Below, in pieces: positions 3,768 through 21,176 of a stretch of 64,000 nt of DNA; the first letter of the stretch is position 1; every line of letters begins with the position of its first letter. The position numbers and the translations under genes are program-made. The notes below the pieces were generated by a model. The model saw nothing but the letters and a program-made list of their open reading frames with translations. It did not search any database and was not told the DNA's origin. The DNA comes from Candidatus Poribacteria bacterium (GTDB lineage: Bacteria; Poribacteria; WGA-4E; WGA-3G), in contig OZ242029.1 in the NCBI GenBank assembly GCA_965205015.1, forward strand, positions 64,001 through 128,000. The letters are read 5' to 3'.

Positions 3768-3964
3768 TTGGTTCCCGTTTTTGGAGTGTGCACACCCGAC
3801 ATCATACGACTGAGTGCCTCCCTGTTAATTTAAGCGATATTATACGGTGTGAAACACCCAATGTCAATATTTTACAAATTTTTGTTACTTTTTCACAGAA
3901 ATAACGTATTACAAAATACGTCATCATATTTTATCGAATCATCAAAAATCCTGAGAAATCAAGC

Positions 3965-4767
3965 AAGGAAAATCCAATGAATTTCCTAATAGTACTTTCC
4001 ATCTTTTGGGTGAGCGTGCTTGTCAAATTTTCCAGATATCCATAAGTCCAGACAGCACGTTAATACCACTTGATACCAACAAGCACGGGTAATGAGACGT
4101 GTTTGTTAAAACGCAACCATTTCTAAAACACAACTCATTGTTTGGGCAGGCTTCGCGCCTGCCCAATTTCTTTGCAGTTAAGTAACCCTCACGGTGTTTG
4201 TTTCAGACTCGCCCAAGTGCCGACTCGCTTGCGTTTGACCGCACTCGGTGCCGACGGCGCCGGTTGCTCGTAGAACCCGGGAGACCCCATGTCTTCCCGA
4301 TGTCCATAGTAATAAACCTCCGGGGGCGACTCGCTCGGGACGACCTGATGAGAGACACGCGCCTGGTTCTGATGGAGTGGTGCCACCGGATCCCCTAACG
4401 CACCAAAAGCTGCCCTACCGAGACGGTGAATCTCTGCGCCATCGGCATCCGTCAACACCCACCCGCGTTTGAGGACGTTGTCTATGTTCAAGTTGTAGAC
4501 CTGTGTTGCTTCTATCCCGGAAAATCGCCATGCCGAAACTGTTCCGGTTGATAGGATCGCGACACCACCCCCTGCTATGCTGAACCCATCCTGTGTTCCA
4601 GCGAGTGTCAGTGTGTGGACCTTATGGGGGGCGGTGGCAGACCGTCGGGTGGCATATTGGAACGTGTAGCCTTTGAGGTTAACTACCTCGGTGTTGGGGT
4701 TATACACCTCAATCCACTGTGGTAATCCACTACTCCCAGCAGACCAATCTCTGACCATATACTCTGT
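3965..4767. repeat. Direct repeat A1 (3' constant part of lamin-tail gene plus downstream region); copy A2 at 12931-13733
   Basis: Near-identical by eye at a constant offset of 8966; coding differences mostly synonymous. Confidence 0.95.
4142..4166. terminator. Hairpin terminator downstream of lamin-tail gene 1 (identical copy at 13108-13132)
   Basis: TTGGGCAGGC-TTCGC-GCCTGCCCAA, perfect 10-bp stem just after the stop codon. Confidence 0.7.
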
Positions 4768-5466
4768 TATGCGTATGGGGAATAAAGGTTGAGGCTCGGG
4801 TTGTGTTTCTGGTGTCCCCTCAAGCGTTGTTCCGTATTTTTGTTGGGCTCTGAGGAAATTTTGTTCTGTGCTTGTGTCAACAGGGGTTTGGCTCTCACCT
4901 GCTTCGGATGTCCCTTCAGATGTGCCTCCCGTCGCTACCGCTGTAGGTTGAGTAACCGTAGGATAATTCACTGTTGGCTGATTATTAGGCTGTTGATTCA
5001 CAGGTTGCTGATTTTCCGGGAGTTGACGCACAGCCCGCGGAGGTGCATCCTGTTGAGGTGAGGACCCCTGAATCAAAGACTGCTGAGGGGGAGACTGTGG
5101 TTCAGCAGGTCGCTGAACAGGGTCGTGCTTATGACCTGAAAGATAGTCACCGTGATCGTGCTTGTAAGCCGCCTGCGAGTTCTCATAGTTATGTACATGT
5201 TCACCTGAACTGTAATACCAGGCTCTTGTCATCCCGCCGTAACCTGGATTTGTGTTATCGGGGAAAATATAATTGTGCTCGTGCCAACGGGTTTCCCCAT
5301 AGATTTGCACTCCACGGTCGTCGCTCTCACGGGTTACATCGCGCTGACTGGATAATTCTGCTCGACCCCGTGTTGGGTCTACCCAAGATTCAATGTTATG
5401 CGCGAACACTGACGATGACACTGCTAAAAGTGAAAGCGTTAAGAGTAAGATGCTAAATCTAAACAT
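4189..5466 (-). CDS. Secreted His-rich protein with C-terminal lamin-tail domain (paralog 1)
   Basis: Signal peptide ending VFA-H, His-rich segment, Q/P/T linker, lamin-tail motif IRITEYM...QWIEVYNPNTEVVNLKGY and GSPG, C-terminal TWASLK; AAGGAG RBS. Confidence 0.8.
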   Translation of the reverse strand: MFRFSILLLTLSLLAVSSSVFAHNIESWVDPTRGRAELSSQRDVTRESDDRGVQIYGETRWHEHNYIFPDNTNPGYGGMTRAWYYSSGEHVHNYENSQAAYKHDHGDYLSGHKHDPVQRPAEPQSPPQQSLIQGSSPQQDAPPRAVRQLPENQQPVNQQPNNQPTVNYPTVTQPTAVATGGTSEGTSEAGESQTPVDTSTEQNFLRAQQKYGTTLEGTPETQPEPQPLFPIRITEYMVRDWSAGSSGLPQWIEVYNPNTEVVNLKGYTFQYATRRSATAPHKVHTLTLAGTQDGFSIAGGGVAILSTGTVSAWRFSGIEATQVYNLNIDNVLKRGWVLTDADGAEIHRLGRAAFGALGDPVAPLHQNQARVSHQVVPSESPPEVYYYGHREDMGSPGFYEQPAPSAPSAVKRKRVGTWASLKQTP

Positions 5467-5594
5467 TTTTTATCTCCTTAGTTTGTAAAAGAAACGGTCT
5501 CTTGGAAGTGTTTTTGCTTCGGTGTTTTCCGTAGGTTGAACGAGAACGGACACAAAGCATTGGGGTGTCCAATACATCGGGAGAGACCTGATGC

Positions 5595-5648
5595 AACAAA
5601 AATAGCCCGCAATGGGAGGCTCTGTGCAAAACAGAACCACCTGCGGGC
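5595..5648 (-). terminator. Putative leader attenuator hairpin, copy 1
   Basis: Minus strand GCCCGCA-GGT-GGTTCTGT-TTTGC-ACAGAGCC-TCCCAT-TGCGGGC followed by TATTTTTGTT; outer stem and tail conserved in copy 2. Confidence 0.55.
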
Positions 5649-5700
5649 GCGAAGACAGTCCGATGCAGGACCGTCAGGATCGTTTTATGAAATAAAATAC

Positions 5701-5856
5701 TTATCGTTTGTGAAGAATTCGGGGGGGGTTTTTACCTATTTGAGGATCGACAGAACGCCTCAAAACGCAGCAGCCACTCCCTCTCATCGGGGCGCGCACA
5801 TCCGCACGCATCTTCAGAGACCTTTTTAATTCAAAGGGTAAACTGCACTTCGTCAT
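5701..5856 (-). CDS. Leader uORF2 copy 1 (51 aa) containing the C8 tract at 5721-5728
   Basis: Manual translation MTKCSLPFELKRSLKMRADVRAPMRGSGCCVLRRSVDPQIGKNPPRILHKR*; GAGG upstream of ATG. Confidence 0.4.
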   Translation of the reverse strand: MTKCSLPFELKRSLKMRADVRAPMRGSGCCVLRRSVDPQIGKNPPRILHKR

Positions 5857-5887
5857 GAGCGTTCCTCAGGTAAAATGTTCAAGTCTA

Positions 5888-6022
5888 TCAAGGTTTTTTC
5901 GGTTGGCGAAGGTGTTGTTTTTCAAACGCCACCATCGCTTTTAAGTCAGTAGTTGTAAATCCATGAAATATCTCAAGGTTTTCTCTTTTGTCGTTGTGTC
6001 GGTTGCGAAAATCGCAACTCAA
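5888..6022 (-). CDS. Leader uORF1 copy 1 (44 aa)
   Basis: TTG start after AGAAAGAGGA; MSCDFRNRHNDKRENLEIFHGFTTTDLKAMVAFEKQHLRQPKKP*; N-terminal ~26 codons shared with copy 2. Confidence 0.45.
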   Translation of the reverse strand: MSCDFRNRHNDKRENLEIFHGFTTTDLKAMVAFEKQHLRQPKKP

Positions 6023-6304
6023 ACGTATCCTCTTTCTAATGCTCTATAGTTACTTAGGTCACTTTTTCATTATTCATCATATAAAATATAAATGGCATAG
6101 GTAACTATTATACAAAATTTCCAGGTAAAAAGCAAATTATATTTACAAAAATTGCTAATTTTCCTTAAAAAGTGAATAATATTTTAGAATTGTAGCTAAT
6201 TTTTTCTGAGAAACCCCTTTCCCAAATATCGTGGGGATCTTCAGCATTTACCAGAATTCACATTGATTTAAAATTTGACCCAAAATGAAATGCGTGATAG
6301 TATA
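5951..6304. repeat. Direct repeat B1 (promoter region and uORF1 5' part); copy B2 at 14972-15330
   Basis: Highly similar by eye, with few substitutions and small indels. Confidence 0.9.
6107..6135 (-). promoter_or_regulatory. Putative sigma70 promoter of lamin-tail gene 1 leader (copy 2 at 15132-15160)
   Basis: TTGCTT-17 nt-TATAAT on the minus strand, conserved in both copies. Confidence 0.6.
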
Positions 6305-6311
6305 CCCTATT

Positions 6312-6460
6312 TAGGGCTTACGCAGTTTACCTGTTTTTGTGCGGTCTTTGGTTCGTAGTAGCGCAATGGTGCAAGTCGCGTGTGGACTTGCGGGACAATG
6401 CGCTTTCTTCGGGAATATCACCTCAATTTTGGTATAGAAGCCAATTGTGCGTAAGTCCTG
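6312..6460. mobile_element. MITE-like element (left) with 13-bp terminal inverted repeats and an internal GTAG REP
   Basis: Ends TAGGGCTTACGCA and TGCGTAAGTCCTG; internal GTAGTAGCGCAAT; homologous to 12808-12929 in inverted orientation. Confidence 0.7.
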
Positions 6461-6588
6461 TTTATAATTTTTTCCGAAATTGTGTCAAGAAAAAAATGTG
6501 TGCTTCGGTGCATACCCTGTTTTGTTATCACAGCTTGAATAAGTTATTTCGCAGTTGAGAAATTCGCAACGCAAATGGAGGCATTTTC

Positions 6589-7107
6589 ATGGGTTTTGTG
6601 TCATGTCAAGAGGATAATCAGGATACTGCCGGTGAACCTGTAAAGGCAGGAAAACAGAAAGGTCAAGTTACGAAAATAGAAGAAACAGATAAACTCATAG
6701 AACCCGATCCCAAAATGGAGACATTGACAGTGAAAAATACGGTTATCGTCAAAGCAGATGGTCTGGCGGTCAACTCTACTGAGATAGAAAGTTATGCCTT
6801 CGACATCATGTTCATGGATGATGATGAGTAATTAGAACCGCAGATAGACCTCACTGCAACCGCACGAACAGAGCCAAGTAGCCCTGGGAAAGTGTATCTG
6901 ATCTCAAGGTTCTATGACATCAAAGAAGCTTGTTCTCTGCTAACAGATCTTATGTCAAACGTTGTCCCGAGAAAATTTTTCACATTCCGTGTCACATTAG
7001 ACTTAGGAGCGTTCCCAAAGCACCCCACCGCTTATTTCACATCTTGTGGACGCAGCACGACACACGGAATATCGGTTTGTGTCAAGATGAGTCCACAACG
7101 CCGATAA
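6589..7107 (+). pseudogene. Probable pseudogene (hypothetical protein with in-frame TAA at 6829-6831)
   Basis: ORFs 6589-6831 and 6892-7107 share a frame and the intervening 60 nt are open; GGAGG RBS at the first start. Confidence 0.45.
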
Positions 7108-7400
7108 CCCCCGCGGTTGTCAAACTACTGGAGATGTTTTTCTGTGACTGATAACTCTTGAGCCTTAAGTGGCATATTTGTATTGTCTTGATTCTTTCAG
7201 TCAAATATGCTATTATTTTGTTAAGGTCGATTGTGGTGGTGCGCGGTTTAAAGGTTCTACACATTTCACTTGTAAGGTCATTTCACAATAATATTGAAGG
7301 AAGTTTCGCATAGCATTTCATAAGTTTTGGCAAGGTCCTAACCTGCAGGAACGCGGAGGATTTCACGCTATATACTTTCGCTATCATTCTCGCTTTTTAC

Positions 7401-8558
7401 ATGAACACTCCAGAAGTTTTTACACCGGAAGAACGAAACGAAAATACTGAGCGAAAGCGAGAACTGATTGAACTTATTGCCTCTGGAGAGGCTATACTTA
7501 TCGTTGGAGCCGGAAGTAGCGCGCGTGTCGGTTACGTGACTTGGAAAGGTCTTCTGAAGGAATTGGAGGATTTAGCCAATGAGTGCGGGGCCGGTCTCAA
7601 TCAAGAGCGGAAAGGCGATGATTTAGCATACGCAGAAGACATCAAATCACATATCTACAATGAAATGGGTGATTTAGGTAGATACCATGCTTTCCTTGAT
7701 GAACTTTTTAAACCTAAATCTCTAACTTACGACGAATTCCATAGATTGCTTGTTGATCTTCCTTTCAGAGGTATCTTAACCACAAATTACGATATTGTTC
7801 TTGAAGAAGCGTTGTTAGGAAAAAAGATTGAAGCAGAACGAGAAGACAGAGAGATTCCTCCTATAGATGGATCCCCGTTGGTAATCGGGCAAGATACCCC
7901 TCGACTCATCCATGAATTCCTACTATCGCGGAGCAACGATCCACGAATACCGCAACGGATTGCACACCTACATGGAATGTACAGGAATCCAACAAGTATC
8001 ATTCTCAGTATCAACGACTACATTAAGGCCTATGGCTTGCATGTTGCGGAGGATGGAGAGCAAGTTAATGAGAAAGAAGTATGGACGCTTCATCGGAAAT
8101 TGTTATGGGCTGTCTTAGCAACCCGCAGAGTCGTTTTTGTCGGTTTCAGCATGGACGACCCCTACTTTAACAAGATGTTAGAAATCGTCAGTGCAGACCT
8201 GTGGGGATGGAACAAATCTATTCACTTCGCAATTATGGGTATCTCTGCCGAAGACAAGGGAGGCATCCAAGATTCAAAAGATAAAGCAAATAGCCTCAAG
8301 AGTAAGTATGGGATAGATACTGTATTTTACGAGGTTTTTAAGGATTCACATCAACGTTTGGAGGATCTCTTCACTGAAATCGCAGAGCAATGTGAGGATA
8401 GGAATCGATCTGTTGAAGAAACCCAAGACCTGTTAAGCGATAGTGAGCGTTCCGAAGGTGAAGAATTAAAATCCATTTCAAGTGGATCGAGAGATATATT
8501 GAATTGGATTAAACGAGAAAGCCAACGTATGATAAGGAGGATGGGCGATGAAGATTAA
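7401..8558 (+). CDS. SIR2-family (SIR2_2) protein, putative NADase effector
   Basis: Motifs LIVGAGSS, ILTTNYD, HLHG and VFVGFSMDDP, typical of defence-associated sirtuins. Confidence 0.88.
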   Translation: MNTPEVFTPEERNENTERKRELIELIASGEAILIVGAGSSARVGYVTWKGLLKELEDLANECGAGLNQERKGDDLAYAEDIKSHIYNEMGDLGRYHAFLDELFKPKSLTYDEFHRLLVDLPFRGILTTNYDIVLEEALLGKKIEAEREDREIPPIDGSPLVIGQDTPRLIHEFLLSRSNDPRIPQRIAHLHGMYRNPTSIILSINDYIKAYGLHVAEDGEQVNEKEVWTLHRKLLWAVLATRRVVFVGFSMDDPYFNKMLEIVSADLWGWNKSIHFAIMGISAEDKGGIQDSKDKANSLKSKYGIDTVFYEVFKDSHQRLEDLFTEIAEQCEDRNRSVEETQDLLSDSERSEGEELKSISSGSRDILNWIKRESQRMIRRMGDED

Positions 8559-11500
8559 GCGAGAGAAACTACTTAGGGACTTGCAAGACTTCGCCACGCT
8601 AGGAAATGGAGTCATTATAGGAAGTCCAGGCGTTGGGAAAACGTACCTACTAAAAGAACTCTATCGGAGTTTAGACTCTCTTGAAATACCGGAATTCATA
8701 CTTCCTATTGATCAACTTGGAGATGGGACTGACAAAACTTTACGCGAAGAGTTGTCTTACGAGGGTGATCTGATTGAAAGGTTGAAATCCGTCCCTGTTT
8801 CAGACAAGAAAGCAATATTACTTTTTGATGCCTTTGATGCTGCCCGAGATGAACAGACGCGTAAACGTTTTCTGGACCTCATTCGCAGTGCAATTTTTGA
8901 ACTCCACGAGTCGTGGAATATCATCGTTACAGTCCGAACATACGACGCGAAAAAATCGCAGGAACTCTTAGACCTATTCGGCAATCCCAATGAAGCAGAT
9001 CTAACCAAATACAAAAGTAAAGACATACTATGCCGACATTTTACAATTCCCCCTTTTGATGAGCATGAGATTCTACAGGCATTTGATCAAATCGGGTGCC
9101 CGAAATCCATATACGAGGACGAGGAGGTCTCTCAGGACTTTAAGAACATCCTTGCAAACCCTTTCAATCTTTGGCTATTAGAAAAGATTCTAAAGAGCTC
9201 AGACGGGATTCCCGATTTTAGTCAGATTCATTCTGAAGTCCAGTTACTCGGTCTGTTTTGGCAACGACGGATTGAGAACGAAAACAGTGAGCACCTTCTG
9301 AGGCAAATCTCAGATAAGATGGTTCAAGAACGCTCATTGAGTGTCAGGGTAGATGACGTTTATGACGATGTAGACCTCGATAAACCAATGAGAAAAAACG
9401 CTTGGGATAAACTCCAGAGTGATGAAATCCTATCAAAGGTCTCTTCGTCTGGACAACGGATCGCTTTTTCTCATAATATCCTTTTTGACTATGCAATTAG
9501 CATTCTGCTCATTGATGATGAATCTCAACACCTTGAAGATTTTATTCTTGAGGATGAGTCACGTCCACTTTTTCTGCGCCCGAGTCTTACCTACTTTTTC
9601 ACTCGACTCTGGTACTATGATGACTCCACAAATTTTTGGCGCGCCTTCTGGCATATTTTGCAAAGAGATCAATTTATATCTTTGCGTCTCGTCGCGCGCT
9701 TGATTCCGACAAGCGTTATCGCAAATGAAGCCCGCGGAATTGAGCAATTGGAACCACTCTTGAAGAAACTACAGAACAGAGAAAAAATCGCAAACGAGGC
9801 AATAACACGGCTTCTGCAGGCACTCCAAACTCTACAAATTAAGCGGGACGCGCTCTGGATTGATTTTTTCGACCAAATCTCAGCGCACTTGCATAGTGAT
9901 TTTGCTTGGGATTTGGCAAATCTCACTTCAGATATCCTTGAGCGAGCACCAAAGACTGAAACACCTATCATAGACCCTTGTGGACAGATTGGACGGCGAC
10001 TGTTGAAGTGGGTATGGCAGGAAAGAGAAACGGGCGAAAACAATTGGTATGATCGCTTTGGGGGGCGTTGGGCGGTGCCGCTTGTTGCCAAAACCTACGG
10101 CACCAATGTCGATGAATCTCGAACACTTCTCAAAAAGGTTCTTGAACTGACAAAGGAAGAAAATTTTCCGATAGGCTTTCTGTCATGGTTAACCGAACAT
10201 GTTACTAAGATTTGGGACCATGATCCTAAATTTGTTATCTCAATCTATTACACTGTTTTTTCACACCAATTCACTGGCGATGGAGAAACAATACGAGGTG
10301 GAGCTGTCTTACCAATAACAACTTATCGCAGACAAGATTTTGAGATGTGTCAGTATCGATTGGTAAAGCATTTCTCCAATTTTCTTCGAGCAGCACCATT
10401 ACACGCAGCGAAAGCGGTGATCCGAAGTTTAAACGTCTTTATTGTTAGAGAACATAGCGTCAGGACAGAAGACATAAAGATGTTCAATTTTCGTGGAAAA
10501 TCTACTTGTTTTGTGCAAGATCATAGTTATATCTGGGATGAACAACAGTACACCGACGAGCCGATTGAAATGGCGGACGCTCTGTTTGAATACATCGGAG
10601 AATTGGCGATGTCGGAAGATCCGCGTCTTGATTCACTACTTGATGTTTTCTACGATGAGGTGGTAGTTGCTTTCTTTTGGAAACGGCTTTTGAAGACAGG
10701 GTCCCAGTTTCCAAAGGTCTTCGCTCCCCGTCTTTTTGAATTGTGCATTGCAGAGCCGATACAGAGGCATTCCGAAGCCTTTTATGAACTTTGCCTGTTT
10801 TTAAAAGCCGCTGCGTCTGATTTCACACCGAATAAACTTCTTCAGATTGAAAAGAGCATTTTGGCACTCCCAAGCGAAGCGAGAGACAAAAATCATCGTA
10901 ACGTTCTTGAAGAGGATAGAAATCGGCTTCTTGCCCAAATCCCGGTGGATTTGTTATGTACTGACGAAGCAAAGAGAATTCGAGAAGAAATGGAGCGTAA
11001 AAACGATGTTTCGGAGAATCGACCACCGGTTCGTTTTAGCACCTCGTGGGGACCCGTTACTGAGGAGAAGTGGCTTCAAACACAAGGTGTTGACACGACT
11101 ATACCTGAAAATCAAGAGTTACAACGCTTGTCCAGCCCTCTCAATAAATTCAGTTCAGATTGGCTAAATGATGCCCCAACTCAAGAAGCTATTAGGTTAA
11201 TTTTACCGAAGTTACAGGAGGCGTACACTAAACTAAAAAGCAACACAGAAGCCAATCAGGAAGCAATCAATCTACTGTGGCATAATCTAACCGATTGTGT
11301 AGCAATTCTCGGCCGAATTGCTAATAACCTTGAAAGTAATTCTTTCGCCTTTTGCCGACAAGTTCTCCTAGAGGCTTCAAAACATGAACAGCCTCAGCCG
11401 GACCCTAAATACGATGACGAATTTGATCATCCGGGTTATTCCTCATTTCCACGGCATGAAGCCGCCCGTGGATTACTGAGACTTGCGTTTCATCAACCTG

Positions 11501-12585
11501 ACCCAGAAATATTAGAGGCAATTGAAATACTGGCGAGTGACCCTGTACCATCTGTTAGGATGGTAACGGCGATGGAATTAACTAATGTTTATGTCAAATC
11601 TCCAGAAAGGTTCTGGCACATCATGGACAATAGGGCAATCCATGAACGGAATCGCATCGTGCAAAAATATCTCTACCATACATTAACTCGGGTGGTTGCA
11701 AAGGAAAAAGAGAATGAAGACAAGACAACTCGCGTCATGGCGAAACTATTGGAGCATACACCTCCACCTACAGAAGGATTAGAACCGTCAGATTCATTCA
11801 TCGTTTTGTTAATGTGGCTGATAATTGATCGCCAAAATCCATGGGCATTGAAAACAATCGAAGATACATTTTTCACGGATCCCATCCGGTTTGCTAACCC
11901 TCTGAGTCGTGCAGTGTCTGAGATCGTGAGAGATTACGTCCTCCCTAAACATCTTGAAACAGATATAGGACGCGAAAGAGCAAAACGAGCTATTGGATGG
12001 TTAGGGCAAGTGATCGATATAATTGCTGATAGGGTTATGGAATTGTATGGTATCGCCAAAGAACATGAGACTGAAGAAGGAGTGAAAGAGTTACACAACA
12101 CCTACAAAGCAATTGATGAGGTGATAACACGTCTTTACTTTGCAGTTGCCTACAAAAGAGATCAATCTGAGGAACCTGTTGAGGAAATCTCCAACGAGTT
12201 ACGCTGTGATTTCTATAATGAAGTCAAACCTTTGATGCAACAGGTCATTACTTTTGCACAAAAACCAGAAAGCGGTATTATGTTTGCACCGACAGCACAC
12301 TATTTCATGCAACTTCTAACGAGTTTTCTCAGTTGCGATCCCAAAGGTATTTTACGCTTAGCCTCAAGGGTTGCGAAGTCAAGTGAACGGTTCGGTTATA
12401 CGCTTGATTCCATCGCGGTTCGGGATGTTGTCGAATTTGTTGAAATTGTCCTCGCTGACTACCGAGATGAGGTGCGTGATGGTGAAGCATTGGAGGACCT
12501 GCTAAATCTCTTGGATATGTTTGCCAAAATAGGATGGACGGATGCCCTTAAACTTGTTTGGCGGCTTGATGAGGTTTTTCGGTAG
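8548..12585 (+). CDS. STAND/NACHT-like ATPase with long helical sensor region (Avs/AVAST-like), no fused effector
   Basis: Walker A GSPGVGKT near residue 25, Walker B LLFDAFD, sensor TVR, NPFNL and FSHNILFDY, then ~1000 aa of helical repeats; own AAGGAGG RBS; 11-nt overlap with the SIR2 gene. Confidence 0.78.
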   Translation: MKIKREKLLRDLQDFATLGNGVIIGSPGVGKTYLLKELYRSLDSLEIPEFILPIDQLGDGTDKTLREELSYEGDLIERLKSVPVSDKKAILLFDAFDAARDEQTRKRFLDLIRSAIFELHESWNIIVTVRTYDAKKSQELLDLFGNPNEADLTKYKSKDILCRHFTIPPFDEHEILQAFDQIGCPKSIYEDEEVSQDFKNILANPFNLWLLEKILKSSDGIPDFSQIHSEVQLLGLFWQRRIENENSEHLLRQISDKMVQERSLSVRVDDVYDDVDLDKPMRKNAWDKLQSDEILSKVSSSGQRIAFSHNILFDYAISILLIDDESQHLEDFILEDESRPLFLRPSLTYFFTRLWYYDDSTNFWRAFWHILQRDQFISLRLVARLIPTSVIANEARGIEQLEPLLKKLQNREKIANEAITRLLQALQTLQIKRDALWIDFFDQISAHLHSDFAWDLANLTSDILERAPKTETPIIDPCGQIGRRLLKWVWQERETGENNWYDRFGGRWAVPLVAKTYGTNVDESRTLLKKVLELTKEENFPIGFLSWLTEHVTKIWDHDPKFVISIYYTVFSHQFTGDGETIRGGAVLPITTYRRQDFEMCQYRLVKHFSNFLRAAPLHAAKAVIRSLNVFIVREHSVRTEDIKMFNFRGKSTCFVQDHSYIWDEQQYTDEPIEMADALFEYIGELAMSEDPRLDSLLDVFYDEVVVAFFWKRLLKTGSQFPKVFAPRLFELCIAEPIQRHSEAFYELCLFLKAAASDFTPNKLLQIEKSILALPSEARDKNHRNVLEEDRNRLLAQIPVDLLCTDEAKRIREEMERKNDVSENRPPVRFSTSWGPVTEEKWLQTQGVDTTIPENQELQRLSSPLNKFSSDWLNDAPTQEAIRLILPKLQEAYTKLKSNTEANQEAINLLWHNLTDCVAILGRIANNLESNSFAFCRQVLLEASKHEQPQPDPKYDDEFDHPGYSSFPRHEAARGLLRLAFHQPDPEILEAIEILASDPVPSVRMVTAMELTNVYVKSPERFWHIMDNRAIHERNRIVQKYLYHTLTRVVAKEKENEDKTTRVMAKLLEHTPPPTEGLEPSDSFIVLLMWLIIDRQNPWALKTIEDTFFTDPIRFANPLSRAVSEIVRDYVLPKHLETDIGRERAKRAIGWLGQVIDIIADRVMELYGIAKEHETEEGVKELHNTYKAIDEVITRLYFAVAYKRDQSEEPVEEISNELRCDFYNEVKPLMQQVITFAQKPESGIMFAPTAHYFMQLLTSFLSCDPKGILRLASRVAKSSERFGYTLDSIAVRDVVEFVEIVLADYRDEVRDGEALEDLLNLLDMFAKIGWTDALKLVWRLDEVFR

Positions 12586-12807
12586 TTTTTTTATGAAGCA
12601 CGCGTTCGATAAAGTCTGCACATTTCGCTCCGCTGGGGCTTAGGGTTCGGGGATGTTGCATTTTCTATAGACATTGAAGAAACACCCAAGCAAAAACCCC
12701 CACTGGGGCTTTAAGGCAGTGGTAGGTTCCGTGTTCTATACATATTTCTTCCTGTTAGGGCTTAGGTATTTATACTCGGACATTTATGAAGGAAATTCCA
12801 ATTAAGG

Positions 12808-12929
12808 CAGGACTTACGCAAATTTGTATTCTGCGACCAAATTAATTGTTCAGAACCCAAGAATGCGCAATGAATTGCGCTACTACAAACCAGAGATGAC
12901 ACGAAAATGAGCAAGCTGCGTAAGTCCTA
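12808..12929. mobile_element. MITE-like element (right), inverted relative to 6312-6460
   Basis: Ends CAGGACTTACGCA and TGCGTAAGTCCTA; internal GCGCAATGAATTGCGCTACTAC REP. Confidence 0.75.
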
Positions 12930-12930
12930 T

Positions 12931-13733
12931 AAGGAAAATCCAATGAATTTCCTAATAGTACTTTCCATCTTTTGGGTGAGCGTGCTTGTCAAATTTTCCA
13001 GATATCCATAAGTCCAGACAGCACGTTAATACCACTTGATACCAACAAGCACGGGTAATGAGACGTGTTTGTTAAAACGCAACCATTTCTAAAACACAAC
13101 TCATTGTTTGGGCAGGCTTCGCGCCTGCCCAATTTCTTTGCAGTTAAGTAACCCTCACGGTGTTTGTTTCAGACTCGCCCAAGTGCCGACTCGCTTGCGT
13201 TTGACCGCACTCGGTGCCGACGGAGCCGGTTGCTCGTAGAACCCGGGAGACCCCATGTCTTCCCGATGTCCATAGTAATAAACCTCCGGGGGCGACTCGC
13301 TCGGGACCACCTGATGCGAGACCCGCGCCTGGTTCTGATGGAGCGGTGCCACCGGATCCCCTAACGCACCAAAAGCTGCCCTACCGAGACGGTGAATCTC
13401 TGCGCCATCGGCATCCGTCAACACCCACCCGCGTTTGAGGACGTTGTCTATGTTCAAGTTGTAGACCTGTGTTGCTTCTATCCCGGAAAATCGCCATGCC
13501 GAAACTGTTCCGGTTGATAGGATCGCGACACCACCCCCTGCTATGCTGAACCCGTCCTGTGTTCCAGCGAGCGTCAGTGTGTGGACTTTATGGGGGGCGT
13601 TGGCTGACCGTCGGGTGGCGTATTGGAACGTCCAACCTTTGAGGTTAACTGCCTCGGTGTTGGGGTTATACACCTCAATCCACTGTGGTAATCCACTACT
13701 CCCAGCAGACCAATCTCTGACCATATACTCTGT
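12931..13733. repeat. Direct repeat A2
   Basis: Matches 3965-4767. Confidence 0.95.
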
Positions 13734-14585
13734 CACACGTATCGGTTGCATCAGTGGAGCACTCGGTCGCCTTTCTTGCGGCGCGATGCCTGCCGCAATA
13801 GGTCCCACGGGTTGAGGACTGGATGTCCCTGCGGGGGTTCCACCCGTCACTACCGTTGTGGGTTGAGTAACCGTCGGTTGATTCACAGGTTGCTGATTCA
13901 CAGGTTGCTGATTCACAGGTTGCTGATTCACAGGTTGCTGATTGGCAGGGCGTTGAATCCCTCCCAAAGGTGCATTCACTTGAGGTGAGGACTGCAGAAT
14001 CAGCCCAGCGCTTTGAACCACAGTGCCTTCAACCATTCGTGTGCCTACATTCGAGTGGTCGTTATCCAAATAGTGAGGATTCGGGTGCGGATGTGGATTA
14101 GTTATCGAAGAGTGTTTGTGTCCCACGCGATGCGTGTGCGATGCATAGTCATCATGCCGGTGGGCAGTAAAGGTATGCCAATGCCACTCGTTGGTATTCT
14201 CTACGGGATCAGGAGTAGGATCCGGATCTGGAGCCGCTTCATATCCAGTGGCACTGGTATCATGAGAATTAGCGTGTGCATTGGCAAATCCATCTTTCAG
14301 ATGCGGGTGATTAATAGTCTTACCTGTGCCCGCCGGTGCTCTTGCCGGTGTAGTGGTAAGTCCTGGAACAGCAGTGTTGTGATGAATCTCCGGATGACCT
14401 GGATCTGTCAGCTCCCCGCTTTCCCAGTCGACGACATTTCTATGATAATGCCACCCTGAACCGTGTTCATGATAAAGATCACCATCGTAAGTAGGACTAC
14501 TCACATCGTGTGCGTAGACAGATGAAATAGCCGTCAATACGCAAAAAACGGATAAGACGCTAAAAGTCAGTATTTTTGAAAACAT
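13155..14585 (-). CDS. Secreted His-rich protein with C-terminal lamin-tail domain (paralog 2)
   Basis: Signal peptide ending VYA-H, very His-rich N-terminal region, NQQPV repeats; last ~190 aa nearly identical to paralog 1. Confidence 0.8.
   Translation of the reverse strand: MFSKILTFSVLSVFCVLTAISSVYAHDVSSPTYDGDLYHEHGSGWHYHRNVVDWESGELTDPGHPEIHHNTAVPGLTTTPARAPAGTGKTINHPHLKDGFANAHANSHDTSATGYEAAPDPDPTPDPVENTNEWHWHTFTAHRHDDYASHTHRVGHKHSSITNPHPHPNPHYLDNDHSNVGTRMVEGTVVQSAGLILQSSPQVNAPLGGIQRPANQQPVNQQPVNQQPVNQQPVNQPTVTQPTTVVTGGTPAGTSSPQPVGPIAAGIAPQERRPSAPLMQPIRVTEYMVRDWSAGSSGLPQWIEVYNPNTEAVNLKGWTFQYATRRSANAPHKVHTLTLAGTQDGFSIAGGGVAILSTGTVSAWRFSGIEATQVYNLNIDNVLKRGWVLTDADGAEIHRLGRAAFGALGDPVAPLHQNQARVSHQVVPSESPPEVYYYGHREDMGSPGFYEQPAPSAPSAVKRKRVGTWASLKQTP
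13879..13943. repeat. 15-bp tandem repeat (4 full copies plus partial) encoding NQQPV
   Basis: TGATTCACAGGTTGC x4 read directly. Confidence 0.95.
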
Positions 14586-14653
14586 TTTTCAAATCTCCTT
14601 TTTAATTTACTTTAGAAGCACAACCTAACAGGTGCTGCGACAAGGGACCTCTT

Positions 14654-14706
14654 AACAAAAATAGCCCGCAACGCGGCAAGCGTGTGGAAACGCAGCGCGG
14701 GCGGGC
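14654..14706 (-). terminator. Putative leader attenuator hairpin, copy 2
   Basis: Minus strand GCCCGC-C-CGCG-CT-GCGT-TTCCAC-ACGC-TTGC-CGCG-TT-GCGGGC followed by TATTTTTGTT. Confidence 0.55.
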
Positions 14707-14766
14707 GCGAAAAAACCGCGACAGCAGCGAAGCTGCGGACGCAGTTTATGAGATAGATATGTAAAA

Positions 14767-14901
14767 TTACTTCACGGGGGTTAAGAGGGGGGGGGTACTC
14801 GTACCTTGACTAACCACACACCAGCCGGATACCGGGACCCAGCACGGAGGCACGTTTGCTGTGGATATGGTCAGAAGAAGGGGGTCTCTATAAGCCTTCA
14901 T
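14767..14901 (-). CDS. Leader uORF2 copy 2 (44 aa) containing the C9 tract at 14787-14795
   Basis: Manual translation MKAYRDPLLLTISTANVPPCWVPVSGWCVVSQGTSTPPLLTPVK*; start overlaps the end of uORF1. Confidence 0.4.
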   Translation of the reverse strand: MKAYRDPLLLTISTANVPPCWVPVSGWCVVSQGTSTPPLLTPVK

Positions 14902-15043
14902 ACGCGTTAGTCGGGATGTCCTGAATTTGTAGATTTAAGTTATCATAAACCCAAGTTGCCAGTGAGTCGGCAGTTGTAAATCCATGAAATATCTCAATGG
15001 TTTCTCTTTTAGCGTTGTGTCGGTTGCGAAAATCGCAACTCAA
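14888..15043 (-). CDS. Leader uORF1 copy 2 (51 aa)
   Basis: TTG after AGAAAGAGGA; MSCDFRNRHNAKRETIEIFHGFTTADSLATWVYDNLNLQIQDIPTNAYEGL*. Confidence 0.45.
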   Translation of the reverse strand: MSCDFRNRHNAKRETIEIFHGFTTADSLATWVYDNLNLQIQDIPTNAYEGL

Positions 15044-15330
15044 ACGTATCCTCTTTCTAATGCTCTATAGTCACTTAGGTCACTTTTTACTTATTCATCA
15101 TATAAAATATAAATGGCATATGTAACTAAGGATTATACAAAATTGTCAGGTAAAAAGCAAATTATATTTACAAAAATTGCTAATTTTTCTTAAAAAGTGA
15201 ATAATATTTTAGAATTGTCGCTAATTTTTTCTGAGAAACACCTTTCCAAAATACCGTGGGGATCTTCAGCATTTACCAGAATTCACATCGAATTTAAAAT
15301 TTGACCCAAAATGAAATGCGTGATAGTATA
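14972..15330. repeat. Direct repeat B2
   Basis: Matches 5951-6304. Confidence 0.9.
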
Positions 15331-15529
15331 TACTATTACTATAACGCAAGTTGCCCCCTATTTAGAGACATAGCACCCCTACGGGGTGCTATCGCTTAAA
15401 TACGCCATTTTCCATAGACATATCACCCCTAAATCAACGTCAGAATGCGCGTGCTGAAACTGCTACAGATTTCCGGGATTATCAAGAAATTCGATCTAAC
15501 TTAAAAAAAGAAGGAAAACTTCGACGGAC

Positions 15530-17530: not shown

Positions 17531-17615
17531 GCCGGAGTGGTGAAATTGGTAGACGCACGGGACTCAAAATCCCGCGGGCCCTAGGTCCATGTCGGTTCGA
17601 GTCCGACCTCCGGCA
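17531..17615 (+). tRNA. tRNA-Leu(CAA)
   Basis: GCCGGAG/CTCCGGC acceptor stem, anticodon arm CGGGA-CTCAAAA-TCCCG, long variable arm, GGTTCGAGTCC T-loop; CCA not encoded. Confidence 0.96.
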
Positions 17616-20773: not shown

Positions 20774-21124
20774 GGGGGTGCACAGGTTTCGACGAAGGTA
20801 AATGAGATATAGGTTGCATGCCGAGGTCTCCGCAGGCCTCGTTAAACAGGCGGAACATTTATAAATGCTGATGAAGAATTAGCATTAGCTGCTTAATGCA
20901 GCTACGCTTGGCCGACCTGCCGCCCGTCAGGGAAGCTAAAGCGCCGCAATACGGGCTAGCTGCTCGCTCATTCTCAAGGGGCGTGCCGTGAAACACTTTT
21001 TGAGATAGCCTCTTATGGATCCTGCACAGGGGAGTCTGAGAGGCGAATCTTAAATCCTGTGATAAGCATGTAGTAGCCTCTATTGAAATGCCTTCGGACG
21101 CGGGTTCGATTCCCGCCACCTCCA
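20774..21124 (+). ncRNA. ssrA: tmRNA; tag peptide (A)ADEELALAA at 20867-20896
   Basis: 5' GGGGGTG...TTCGAC and 3' GACGCGGGTTCGATTCCCGCCACCTCCA with G3-U pair; tag ORF ending LAA; adjacent to smpB. Confidence 0.95.
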
Positions 21125-21176
21125 TTTCTACCGCGTCATTCCGTGTTTACCAACAACACACCGCCTGCAAAACGAC

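Follow-up and report, generated by a model that had tools for sequence, protein, structure and literature searches.

A Candidate Slippage-Controlled Leader Cistron Ahead of Surface-Protein and Defence Genes in Candidatus Poribacteria

INTRODUCTION

Two genes for lamin-tail-domain (LTD) proteins lie in a 64,000-nucleotide (nt) stretch of a Candidatus Poribacteria genome (GenBank assembly GCA_965205015.1, contig OZ242029.1, positions 64,001 to 128,000), referred to here as the window. Each gene is preceded by a long leader in which a short upstream open reading frame (uORF) runs through a poly-C tract and stops a little before a GC-rich hairpin followed by a T tract. The arrangement raises the question of whether the length of the tract decides if expression reaches the gene. 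Comparison across the phylum suggests that it probably does. The leader cistron would be controlled by slippage in the tract, would gate both terminator read-through and translational coupling to the gene behind it, and would be OFF in the two window copies, each of them one C short of the ON frame.

THE TWO LEADERS IN THE WINDOW

Both LTD genes are on the minus strand, with leaders of about 640 nt (gene 1) and about 550 nt (gene 2). The features needed for the argument are listed below in the order of transcription.

Copy 1
6107..6135, minus strand: promoter of leader 1 (TTGCTT, 17 nt, TATAAT with TG before it), 91-96% identical to copy 2
5856-5701, minus strand: leader ORF uORF2, 51 codons plus stop, running through the C8, with AGGA 6 nt before the ATG
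5721..5728, minus strand: poly-C tract C8, predicted OFF; one added C enters the read-through frame
5731-5459, minus strand: slip-accessible read-through frame, 90 codons stop to stop
5676..5720, minus strand: conserved post-tract block with the early stops of two frames (alignment A3)
5654..5675, minus strand: small stem-loop P1, GACGGTCC / GGACTGTC (from folding)
5595..5653, minus strand: intrinsic-terminator-like two-tier hairpin plus TATTTTTGTT
5575..5594, minus strand: second hairpin P3, right behind the T tract, GCATCAGG..CCCGATG
4189..5466, minus strand: LTD gene 1, 425 amino acids (aa), Pfam LTD match at 3.5e-10

Copy 2
15132..15160, minus strand: promoter of leader 2, the same cassette as in leader 1
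14901-14767, minus strand: leader ORF uORF2, 44 codons plus stop, running through the C9
14787..14795, minus strand: poly-C tract C9, predicted OFF; one added C enters the read-through frame
14809-14612, minus strand: slip-accessible read-through frame, 65 codons stop to stop, ending 26 nt before the ATG
14654..14711, minus strand: intrinsic-terminator-like hairpin plus TATTTTTGTT
13155..14585, minus strand: LTD gene 2, 476 aa, Pfam LTD match at 2.2e-10

A first-pass annotation of the window had described the two tracts, both hairpins and the early uORF2 stops, and all of these were found base for base where it had placed them. In both copies uORF2 stops 20 nt past the tract, which is 48 nt (copy 1) or 56 nt (copy 2) before the hairpin pattern; the copy-1 block supplies the TAA of CGATAAG at +18..+20 and a further TAA at +34..+36. 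The same annotation had stated that one additional C opens a frame across each hairpin and that one C fewer leads to an early stop, and this too held on recalculation, with all its coordinates right and the stops for the shortened tract at +36 (copy 1) and +6 (copy 2). The copy-1 read-through frame ends 8 nt inside the LTD gene, so that its stop overlaps the start region, and the two window frames stand in different registers at the 3' arm of the hairpin. The pattern TTCGCGCCCGC-N-GCGGGCTATTTTTGTT has just two matches in the window (5595-5653 and 14654-14711), with 0 expected from 100 shuffles, and the hairpins fold at -28.6 kcal/mol (copy 1) and -23.9 kcal/mol (copy 2). A simple sigma-70 scan skips the leader 1 promoter, whose -35 hexamer fits at only 3/6 positions.

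The leaders had been called largely unrelated, and this needs correction. The 91-96% identity of their first ~300 nt comes from a 2.4-kb segmental duplication (3965-6311 vs 12931-15337) that includes both genes, and from tract to terminator they are diverged copies of a single repeated module. The duplication is a mosaic: its 3' 300 nt are 100% identical and its promoter side 91-96% identical, and the stretch in between (uORF2 through the N-terminal half of the protein) can no longer be aligned. This suggests that gene conversion has acted on the ends or that cassettes were exchanged in the middle. Both LTD proteins have the same C-terminal ~200 aa, and the N-terminus of the gene 1 product appears by eye to be signal-peptide-like.

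A MODULE FAMILY ACROSS THE PHYLUM

A BLAST search with leader 1 against 175 genomes of the phylum gave matches in 58 of them. These matches are separate pieces, namely the promoter cassette, the uORF2 region, the tract-to-terminator part and a 35-45-nt element. The uORF2 region occurs, for example, in genome G159 and the tract-to-terminator part in G136, where it stands ahead of a leucine-rich repeat (LRR) gene; the 180-nt tract-to-terminator part has matches in at least 45 of the 175 genomes. The homology to the G159 leader ends about 5 nt before the tract.

The first-pass annotation had proposed looking for recurrence of an upstream C run with a slip-accessible frame, and this recurrence is extensive. 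Every run of C8 or longer in the window and in the loci fetched by similarity shares the layout (32/32), and listing such runs in genomes G164 and G163 gave 7 further modules. The resulting set of 39 modules, 32 found by similarity and 7 by census, comes from about 30 species-level genomes. Two loci were excluded (L098 and L104) for having neither a terminator nor an ATG ORF of at least 100 nt reaching the tract, and L004 was excluded as a duplicate of L003. The shared layout runs from a promoter and a ribosome-binding site through a leader ORF of ~40-70 codons, the poly-C tract near its end, early stops in usually two frames and a predicted intrinsic terminator to the gene. Tract lengths are C8 (10 modules), C9 (6), C10 (10), C11 (5), C12 (3), C13 (3), C18 (1) and C34 (1). 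The C34 tract, in L053 of genome G080 (locus positions 1628-1661), is in the read-through frame as assembled and encodes 11 consecutive prolines.

The alignment A3 holds 36 copies at 45% mean column identity. Its consensus begins with the tract and continues through aCTTnACA and (G)TTAAGTA, TTCACAA and a small variable stem-loop to a two-tier GC-rich hairpin, TATTTTTGTT and a second hairpin, GCAYYGGG..CCCRRUGC. Over the hairpin and T tract 36 of the 39 modules align. The terminator hairpin with its T tract has a median folding energy of -21.8 kcal/mol, with 29 of the 32 located examples at -15 or below; the T-tract finder was wrong or empty in 10/39 copies, which makes its counts minimum values. 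Five of the 6 outer-stem pairs of A3 show compensatory changes, and RNAalifold on this alignment recovers just that outer stem of 6 pairs, the inner stem being misaligned by MAFFT. By eye, stems with other sequences occupy the P1 position in other copies, and the second hairpin follows the T tract in most modules with varying stem sequences. Two or three (G)TTAAC boxes, 5-15 nt apart, lie upstream of the tract within the leader ORF in eight modules (L017, L041, L043, L060, L010, L044, L051 and L053); they could be a protein-binding array or reflect mere shared ancestry.

The closest relatives of the window loci were found on metagenome contigs, where a protein scan gave 7 loci of which only L003 and L004 carry the leader. 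The two are identical over 5274 nt, and their LTD domain is 72% identical to that of the window. They have the same promoter, a uORF2 homologue, a C8 tract, the hairpin and an 83-codon slip-accessible frame. Homologues of the copy-1 uORF2 are present in L003, L011 and P0001-P0003. A genome scan with LTD protein 1 returned two distant loci (L001 and L002), neither with the hairpin pattern. In the databases, Rfam gave no match to either leader at the gathering score and none at E<=1 within 5400-6300.

PREDICTED LEADER TRANSLATION AND THE OPEN FRAME

Two properties of the family argue that ribosomes are meant to reach the tract and, in one frame, to continue beyond it. In 37 of the 39 modules the tract is reached by an ATG ORF whose start is 100 nt or more upstream, against a fraction of 0.117 in dinucleotide shuffles, and Shine-Dalgarno-like (SD-like) G-rich stretches and TTGACA/TATAAT-like promoters can be seen by eye upstream. 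After the tract, usually two frames are closed within 6-36 nt, most commonly by the TAA of a conserved (G)[AT]TAAG at +14..+16. One frame alone has no stop within the first 39 nt, and in 36/39 modules it stays open through +140, compared with 0.526 of shuffles. Between +40 and +170 the open frame contains 5 stops in 32 modules and the other two frames 37 and 22.

The openness is independent of register. At the end of the terminator the open frames of the 36 aligned copies are distributed over all three registers (16/12/8), with no stops before the stem (vs 11 and 5 in the other frames) and 9 stops in the 60 nt after the T tract (vs 25 and 22). Since indels shift the register and the deficit of stops persists, inherited motif positions cannot explain the open frame. 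The first-pass annotation had based its case on the open frame of the two window copies, and that openness is significant across the family but only weak evidence within the window alone, where all three minus-strand frames are open over the hairpin and 53% of shuffles also keep the relevant frame open. Its observation that the extended peptides cross the hairpin in different frames, with openness conserved and not the peptide, extends to the whole family by the register counts and by the products themselves, which have a mean column identity of 16%. Together with substitutions that are spread evenly over codon positions in uORF2 (window copy 1, L003 and L011), this low identity fits a leader ORF and not a protein with its own function.

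The read-through frame also ends close to the gene. In at least 10 modules no more than about 30 nt separate its end from the main start codon, at the following distances:

L034 -3; L043 +1; L066 -5; L074 -5; window copy 1 +8
L052 -15; L087 -15; L071 -16; window copy 2 -26; L010 -27

The start finder misplaced the TTG/GTG starts of four DUF4007 genes, and the coupling distances of these genes are left out of the count.

TRACT VARIATION AND FUSED ALLELES

As assembled, 12-13 of the 39 modules are in the ON frame, 13 need one more C and 7 need one C fewer; of the remainder, 5 are OFF with both other frames long and 1 has no long frame. Across species these states look near random and seem unconstrained. 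In related pairs of loci, indels are concentrated in the tract. L054 (C10, OFF) and L067 (C11, ON), both before SspB genes, align with 0 gaps in the 150 nt upstream and the 130 nt downstream of the tract. L055 (C9) and L063 (C13) have 0 gaps in their flanks, and L041 (C10) and L043 (C11) have 0 gaps downstream.

The strongest direct evidence for switching is found in protein databases, which contain sequences in which a leader ORF is joined to the read-through frame. P0006 (83 aa) matches the copy-2 uORF2 at 76% over residues 1-38 and the copy-2 slip frame at 84% over residues 37-67. P0005 is likewise a fusion of a copy-2 type uORF2, matched at 62% over uORF2 residues 1-38, to the slip frame. 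P0004 joins a copy-1-like uORF2 N-terminus to a slip frame of copy-2 type extending across the terminator, and P0007 is the uORF of L012 (69%) fused to the read-through frame, with L012 itself being OFF; P0007 also resembles residues 2-46 of the copy-1 read-through frame at 67% identity. The presence of these four fused forms means that ON alleles of such leaders exist in nature.

Tracts of a similar kind are found in an IS1595-type element of genome G164, which consists of a transposase ORF and an N6/N4 DNA-methylase ORF with a poly-G/C tract of 9-14 between them. Its 12 copies (L070, L072, L077-L079, L082, L088, L089, L092-L094 and L096) have tracts of 9-14, and in the 66 pairs among them 1800 nt of flank contain 0 mismatches. 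Either the mutation rate of these tracts is far above that of single bases, or their assembly is wrong. The methylase of the element may be phase-variable or frameshift-dependent.

A PROPOSED MECHANISM

In the mechanism that we propose, the length of the C tract would set the frame in which ribosomes leave it. In OFF frames the ribosome would be released 40-100 nt before the terminator, so that the naked RNA could fold and transcription would stop; Rho may add to termination in these frames. In the ON frame the ribosome would follow the polymerase through both arms of the hairpin and thereby, in line with the established interplay of ribosomes and terminators, suppress termination, and as it would finish at or near the main start codon, translational coupling to the gene would be possible. 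Slipped-strand mispairing would change the length of the tract and give heritable, stochastic ON/OFF switching. The tract codes for a proline run in every frame, which may provide a link to ribosome speed dependent on elongation factor P (EF-P).

We infer termination, its relief by translation, coupling, the rate of slippage and the level at which it acts (DNA, RNA or ribosome) from sequence. The DNA states vary among species, which favours replicative slippage for at least one of the layers. The OFF-release step relies on the position-dependent efficiency of a terminator behind a translated gene. According to one report, a terminator a few base pairs behind such a gene is almost fully repressed, and its efficiency grows with distance (PMC4824070). 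The earlier proposal of a switch for surface proteins, with both window copies OFF, gains support from comparison, through the recurrence of the layout in 39 modules, the fused alleles, the nature of the targets and the single C that separates each copy from ON.

GENES DOWNSTREAM OF THE MODULE

Classical contingency loci carry surface proteins and DNA-modification systems, and the targets of the module are typical of such loci. Thirty-two downstream ORFs were scanned, with the following assignments:

LTD 2, LRR 5, cadherin plus LRR 2, fn3 2, Laminin_G_3 1, dockerin 1
DUF4007 4, DUF1156 methylase 1, DDE transposase 1, no family 13

Many of the 13 ORFs without a family have N-termini that look signal-peptide-like by eye. 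PADLOC, run on two of the ORFs, identified the DUF4007 protein of L054 as SspB and the methylase of L069 as HmaB. It is evenly balanced, in our judgment, whether the modules are portable poly-C gates used throughout the phylum for stochastic, heritable ON/OFF control of the eukaryote-like surface proteins (LTD, LRR, cadherin, fn3 and LamG) and the Ssp and Hma DNA-modification defence operons of uncultivated sponge symbionts.

EVIDENCE THAT WEIGHS AGAINST A SWITCH

Several observations count against the proposed switch. The first concerns its distribution. The first-pass annotation had held that homologous leaders lacking the C run would speak against it, and some such leaders were found: the LTD leader of G159 has the same promoter and a uORF2 homologue with neither C run nor hairpin, and no C run of at least 7 is present in 11 more distant LTD loci. 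The module is therefore optional and portable and not a property of LTD genes. Three of the 39 modules (L074, L084 and L058) are without a canonical terminator, and in the window only the copy-1 hairpin beats its own shuffles (z -3.9 vs -0.5 for copy 2). A TATAAT-like hexamer lies between hairpin and gene in L003 (by eye); the simple sigma-70 scan found no such site after the hairpin in either window copy.

The second concerns statistics. The modules are related by descent, and binomial p-values for the module counts therefore overstate their independence. The strand is A-poor (15%) and poor in stops in all frames (64 stops vs 98 +/- 8 in shuffles), so little can be concluded from the open frame of one copy. 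The flat distribution of uORF2 substitutions gives no sign of a selected peptide and no extra proof of translation.

The third concerns variation of the tract itself. In the copy-1 subfamily 5/5 alleles (the window, L003/L004 and P0001-P0003) are in the same OFF frame and compatible with C8, and a protein-database search found no longer, fused form for the copy-1 uORF2. In this subfamily C8 may be nearly stable, close to the lower limit for slippage, or OFF may be strongly favoured; there may also be no switching, or reliance on rare transcriptional or ribosomal -1 slips. In the assembled-contig alignment none of 12 indel rows out of 36 falls in either window tract. Some contigs have an inserted T behind 14785, and 5722 and 14787 are end points of contig pieces, which hints weakly at branching at the tracts. 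Several of the genomes are single-contig assemblies, in which homopolymer lengths may be mis-called.

ALTERNATIVE EXPLANATIONS

The uniformity of the copy-1 subfamily leads to an explanation in which slippage is programmed and not heritable. The DNA frame would be fixed, a fraction of polymerases or ribosomes would slip, and the leader would act as a rheostat for a low basal level. This would account for the zero frame and the C8-compatible peptide kept in all five alleles and for a -1 frame that is open in both the window (90 codons) and L003 (83 codons). The copy-1 sequence C CCC CCC has the X XXY YYZ shape of a slippery heptamer in the zero frame, and among OFF modules with one long frame the 13 that need an added C, equivalent to a -1 shift, outnumber the 7 that need one removed. 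The other features of a programmed -1 site are missing, since there is no stimulatory stem-loop 5-9 nt past the tract (P1 begins at least 45 nt downstream) and the relation between zero and open frame is not conserved (12-13 ON, 13 and 7), with tracts ranging from 8 to 34. The fused alleles, too, are fused at the DNA level, and we regard this explanation as unlikely.

The tract might instead be an element that binds RNA or protein, such as a loading site for Rho or a target for a G-rich small RNA (sRNA), with its length tuning the binding and the frames being incidental. The G-repeat/RepG pair of Helicobacter pylori is an example of control by a G-rich small RNA. The sense strand is always C in the 39 modules, though these share ancestry, and the leader has more C than G and is A-poor. 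One source reports that variable homopolymers in leaders can tune sRNA control (PMC8295292), which is a point in favour. Such a leader is like the one described here in that a variable homopolymer in the 5' leader tunes expression after initiation, and unlike it in that sRNA pairing involves no ORF or terminator logic. Binding leaves unexplained both the 37 of 39 start-codon ORFs that reach the tract and the lack of stops specific to one frame, and we regard it as quite improbable. No partner RNA was found, though no search aimed at one was made.

It is slightly less probable still that the long ORF is itself the product, a phase-variable protein of ~80-125 aa with a proline run, and that the hairpin merely lies inside its coding region. 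Gene callers do predict such ORFs (P0004-P0007), and the frame is kept open. A coding region is hard to reconcile with a terminator that is crossed in all three registers (16/12/8), with a peptide that is not conserved (16% identity) and with Pfam searches of 10 long forms that gave chance-level matches only. The compensatory change is in the RNA hairpin, and a gene always follows next on the same strand.

In Bordetella, a C-stretch upstream of the surface-protein fim genes changes promoter spacing. By analogy the C run could stand at the -35 position of a second promoter, its length setting the spacing to the upstream TTAAC boxes, and by eye a TAnnnT hexamer does follow the tract at a distance of exactly 17 nt in most copies, with 2-3 (G)TTAAC boxes ahead of the tract. 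The likeness is that of a variable C run upstream of surface-protein genes. The differences are that the run is here inside a predicted leader ORF and that the sigma-70 scan detected no minus-strand site at it in either window copy. The fixed spacing follows from a conserved, gap-free block that also supplies two stops (TAAGTA), and a second promoter would leave the leader ORF and open frame unexplained; we give the analogy very little probability.

Equally slight is the chance that the leader is a neutral repeated cassette spread by recombination, with a drifting tract and no switch: its parts (promoter cassette, uORF, tract-to-terminator part and 35-45-nt element) do recur separately and P0004 is a hybrid of both window types, but the ORF and the open frame are kept despite 45% mean column identity and frequent indels, and the cassette is consistently placed in the sense direction before surface and defence genes.

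RELATION TO KNOWN SYSTEMS

The slip-controlled leader cistron has features of two well-known classes of regulation. Poly-G/C contingency loci are established in genes of Neisseria, Haemophilus, Campylobacter and Helicobacter. Like these simple sequence repeat (SSR) loci, the module uses a homopolymer of at least 8 to set a frame, has surface or DNA-modification targets and differs in frame state among relatives. The homopolymers are of slip length (C8 and C9 in the window, 8-34 in the 39 modules), and differences in length and frame occur between collinear flanks, with the copy-1 subfamily (5/5 in the same frame) as the exception in allele differences. SSR loci have the tract in the regulated gene or its promoter, whereas the module has it in a leader ORF of its own that is not conserved, and its output would come through a terminator and coupling.

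In attenuation by leader peptides, as in trp, his and pheA, the position of the ribosome decides termination. The module shares with these attenuators a leader ORF upstream of an intrinsic terminator and, as proposed here, a decisive ribosome position. A leader ORF with an ATG is present in 37/39 modules with SD-like stretches (by eye; translation is predicted), and a predicted intrinsic terminator lies between ORF and gene. The signal differs, being the frame and stop set by tract length and not tRNA charging, and the terminator would be melted by a ribosome that translates across it. No antiterminator pairing was identified in the consensus fold of A3, which gives the terminator stem alone, and no systematic search for one was made. 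Pathway-matched regulatory codons are absent, in that the proline codons stand before surface and defence genes and not before genes of proline biosynthesis.

Two further systems resemble the module in their output. In cwpV of Clostridioides difficile an intrinsic terminator forms in the OFF transcript, and the switch is a recombinase-driven 195 bp inversion (PMC2784873). It is comparable in that phase variation acts between the promoter and a surface-protein gene through an intrinsic terminator. The means differ, with a DNA inversion in cwpV and a homopolymer slip read by ribosomes here. In siaD of Neisseria meningitidis a frameshift in a C run leads to a premature stop, translation is uncoupled and transcription ends (Lavitola 1999, via PMC3025981). 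The chain from C-run frameshift through early stop to the end of transcription is the same. As far as that source describes it, the siaD effect is a Rho-dependent by-product inside a structural gene, whereas the module has a separate leader cistron and an intrinsic terminator and is seemingly purpose-built. In the literature searched, which has most subscription journals outside it, neither phase variation in Poribacteria nor a repeat-bearing leader ORF gating a terminator was found.

OTHER FEATURES OF THE LEADERS AND THEIR NEIGHBOURHOOD

The leaders contain other repeated parts. A ~65-nt promoter cassette, AAAATTAGCAATTTTTGTAAATATAATTTGC..TTTTGTATAAT, occupies 6107-6171 and 15132-15196 on the minus strand, and it is found in dozens of related genomes at many sites, with 75-85% identity and up to ~100 first-look candidates per genome. 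Between promoter and uORF2 is a ~190-nt block (about 5912-6100 and 14935-15125, minus strand) with a GTTGCGATTTTCGCAAC hairpin and short ORFs, among them uORF1 of copy 1 (within about 6100-5912). The block is present in both window leaders and in part in G159 (L011), and it is absent from L003, the closest relative. A 35-45-nt element at 5500-5542 (minus strand), just upstream of the LTD ribosome-binding site, has matches of 85-97% across related genomes.

Between the duplicated LTD units, at 7401-12585 on the plus strand, are a SIR2-like gene and an overlapping gene for a 1345-aa STAND/NACHT NTPase. The SIR2-like gene matches Pfam SIR2_2 and the PADLOC ThsA-type STALD model, and the NTPase matches the PADLOC candidate PDC-M54A at 1.9e-190. 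Together they resemble a defence pair that was inserted into the duplication or is framed by it. When contig depth in run X2 is summed over 3900-15400, the LTD and leader bins reach 10-30x the depth of the SIR2-STAND bins, so many related copies or strains coexist in sponge metagenomes. Rfam places a tRNA gene at 17531-17615 and a tmRNA at 20774-21127 (192.6 bits), both on the plus strand.

IMPLICATIONS

To our knowledge, phase variation is described almost only from cultivated pathogens, where the repeat is part of the regulated gene or of its promoter. In the module the repeat belongs to a separate leader cistron, with a terminator as its proposed read-out, and the unit is sufficiently modular to stand before unrelated genes. 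For annotation there is a practical warning, in that ON forms are called as hypothetical proteins (P0004-P0007) and OFF forms are not seen by gene callers. If the mechanism is true, it would be a new wiring scheme for both phase variation and attenuation, and the promoter, leader ORF, Cn tract and terminator would make a compact, tunable genetic part. Sponge symbionts would then vary their eukaryote-like, host-facing proteins and their phage-defence modification systems cell by cell, and this variation would bear on how symbionts evade phagocytosis and phages.

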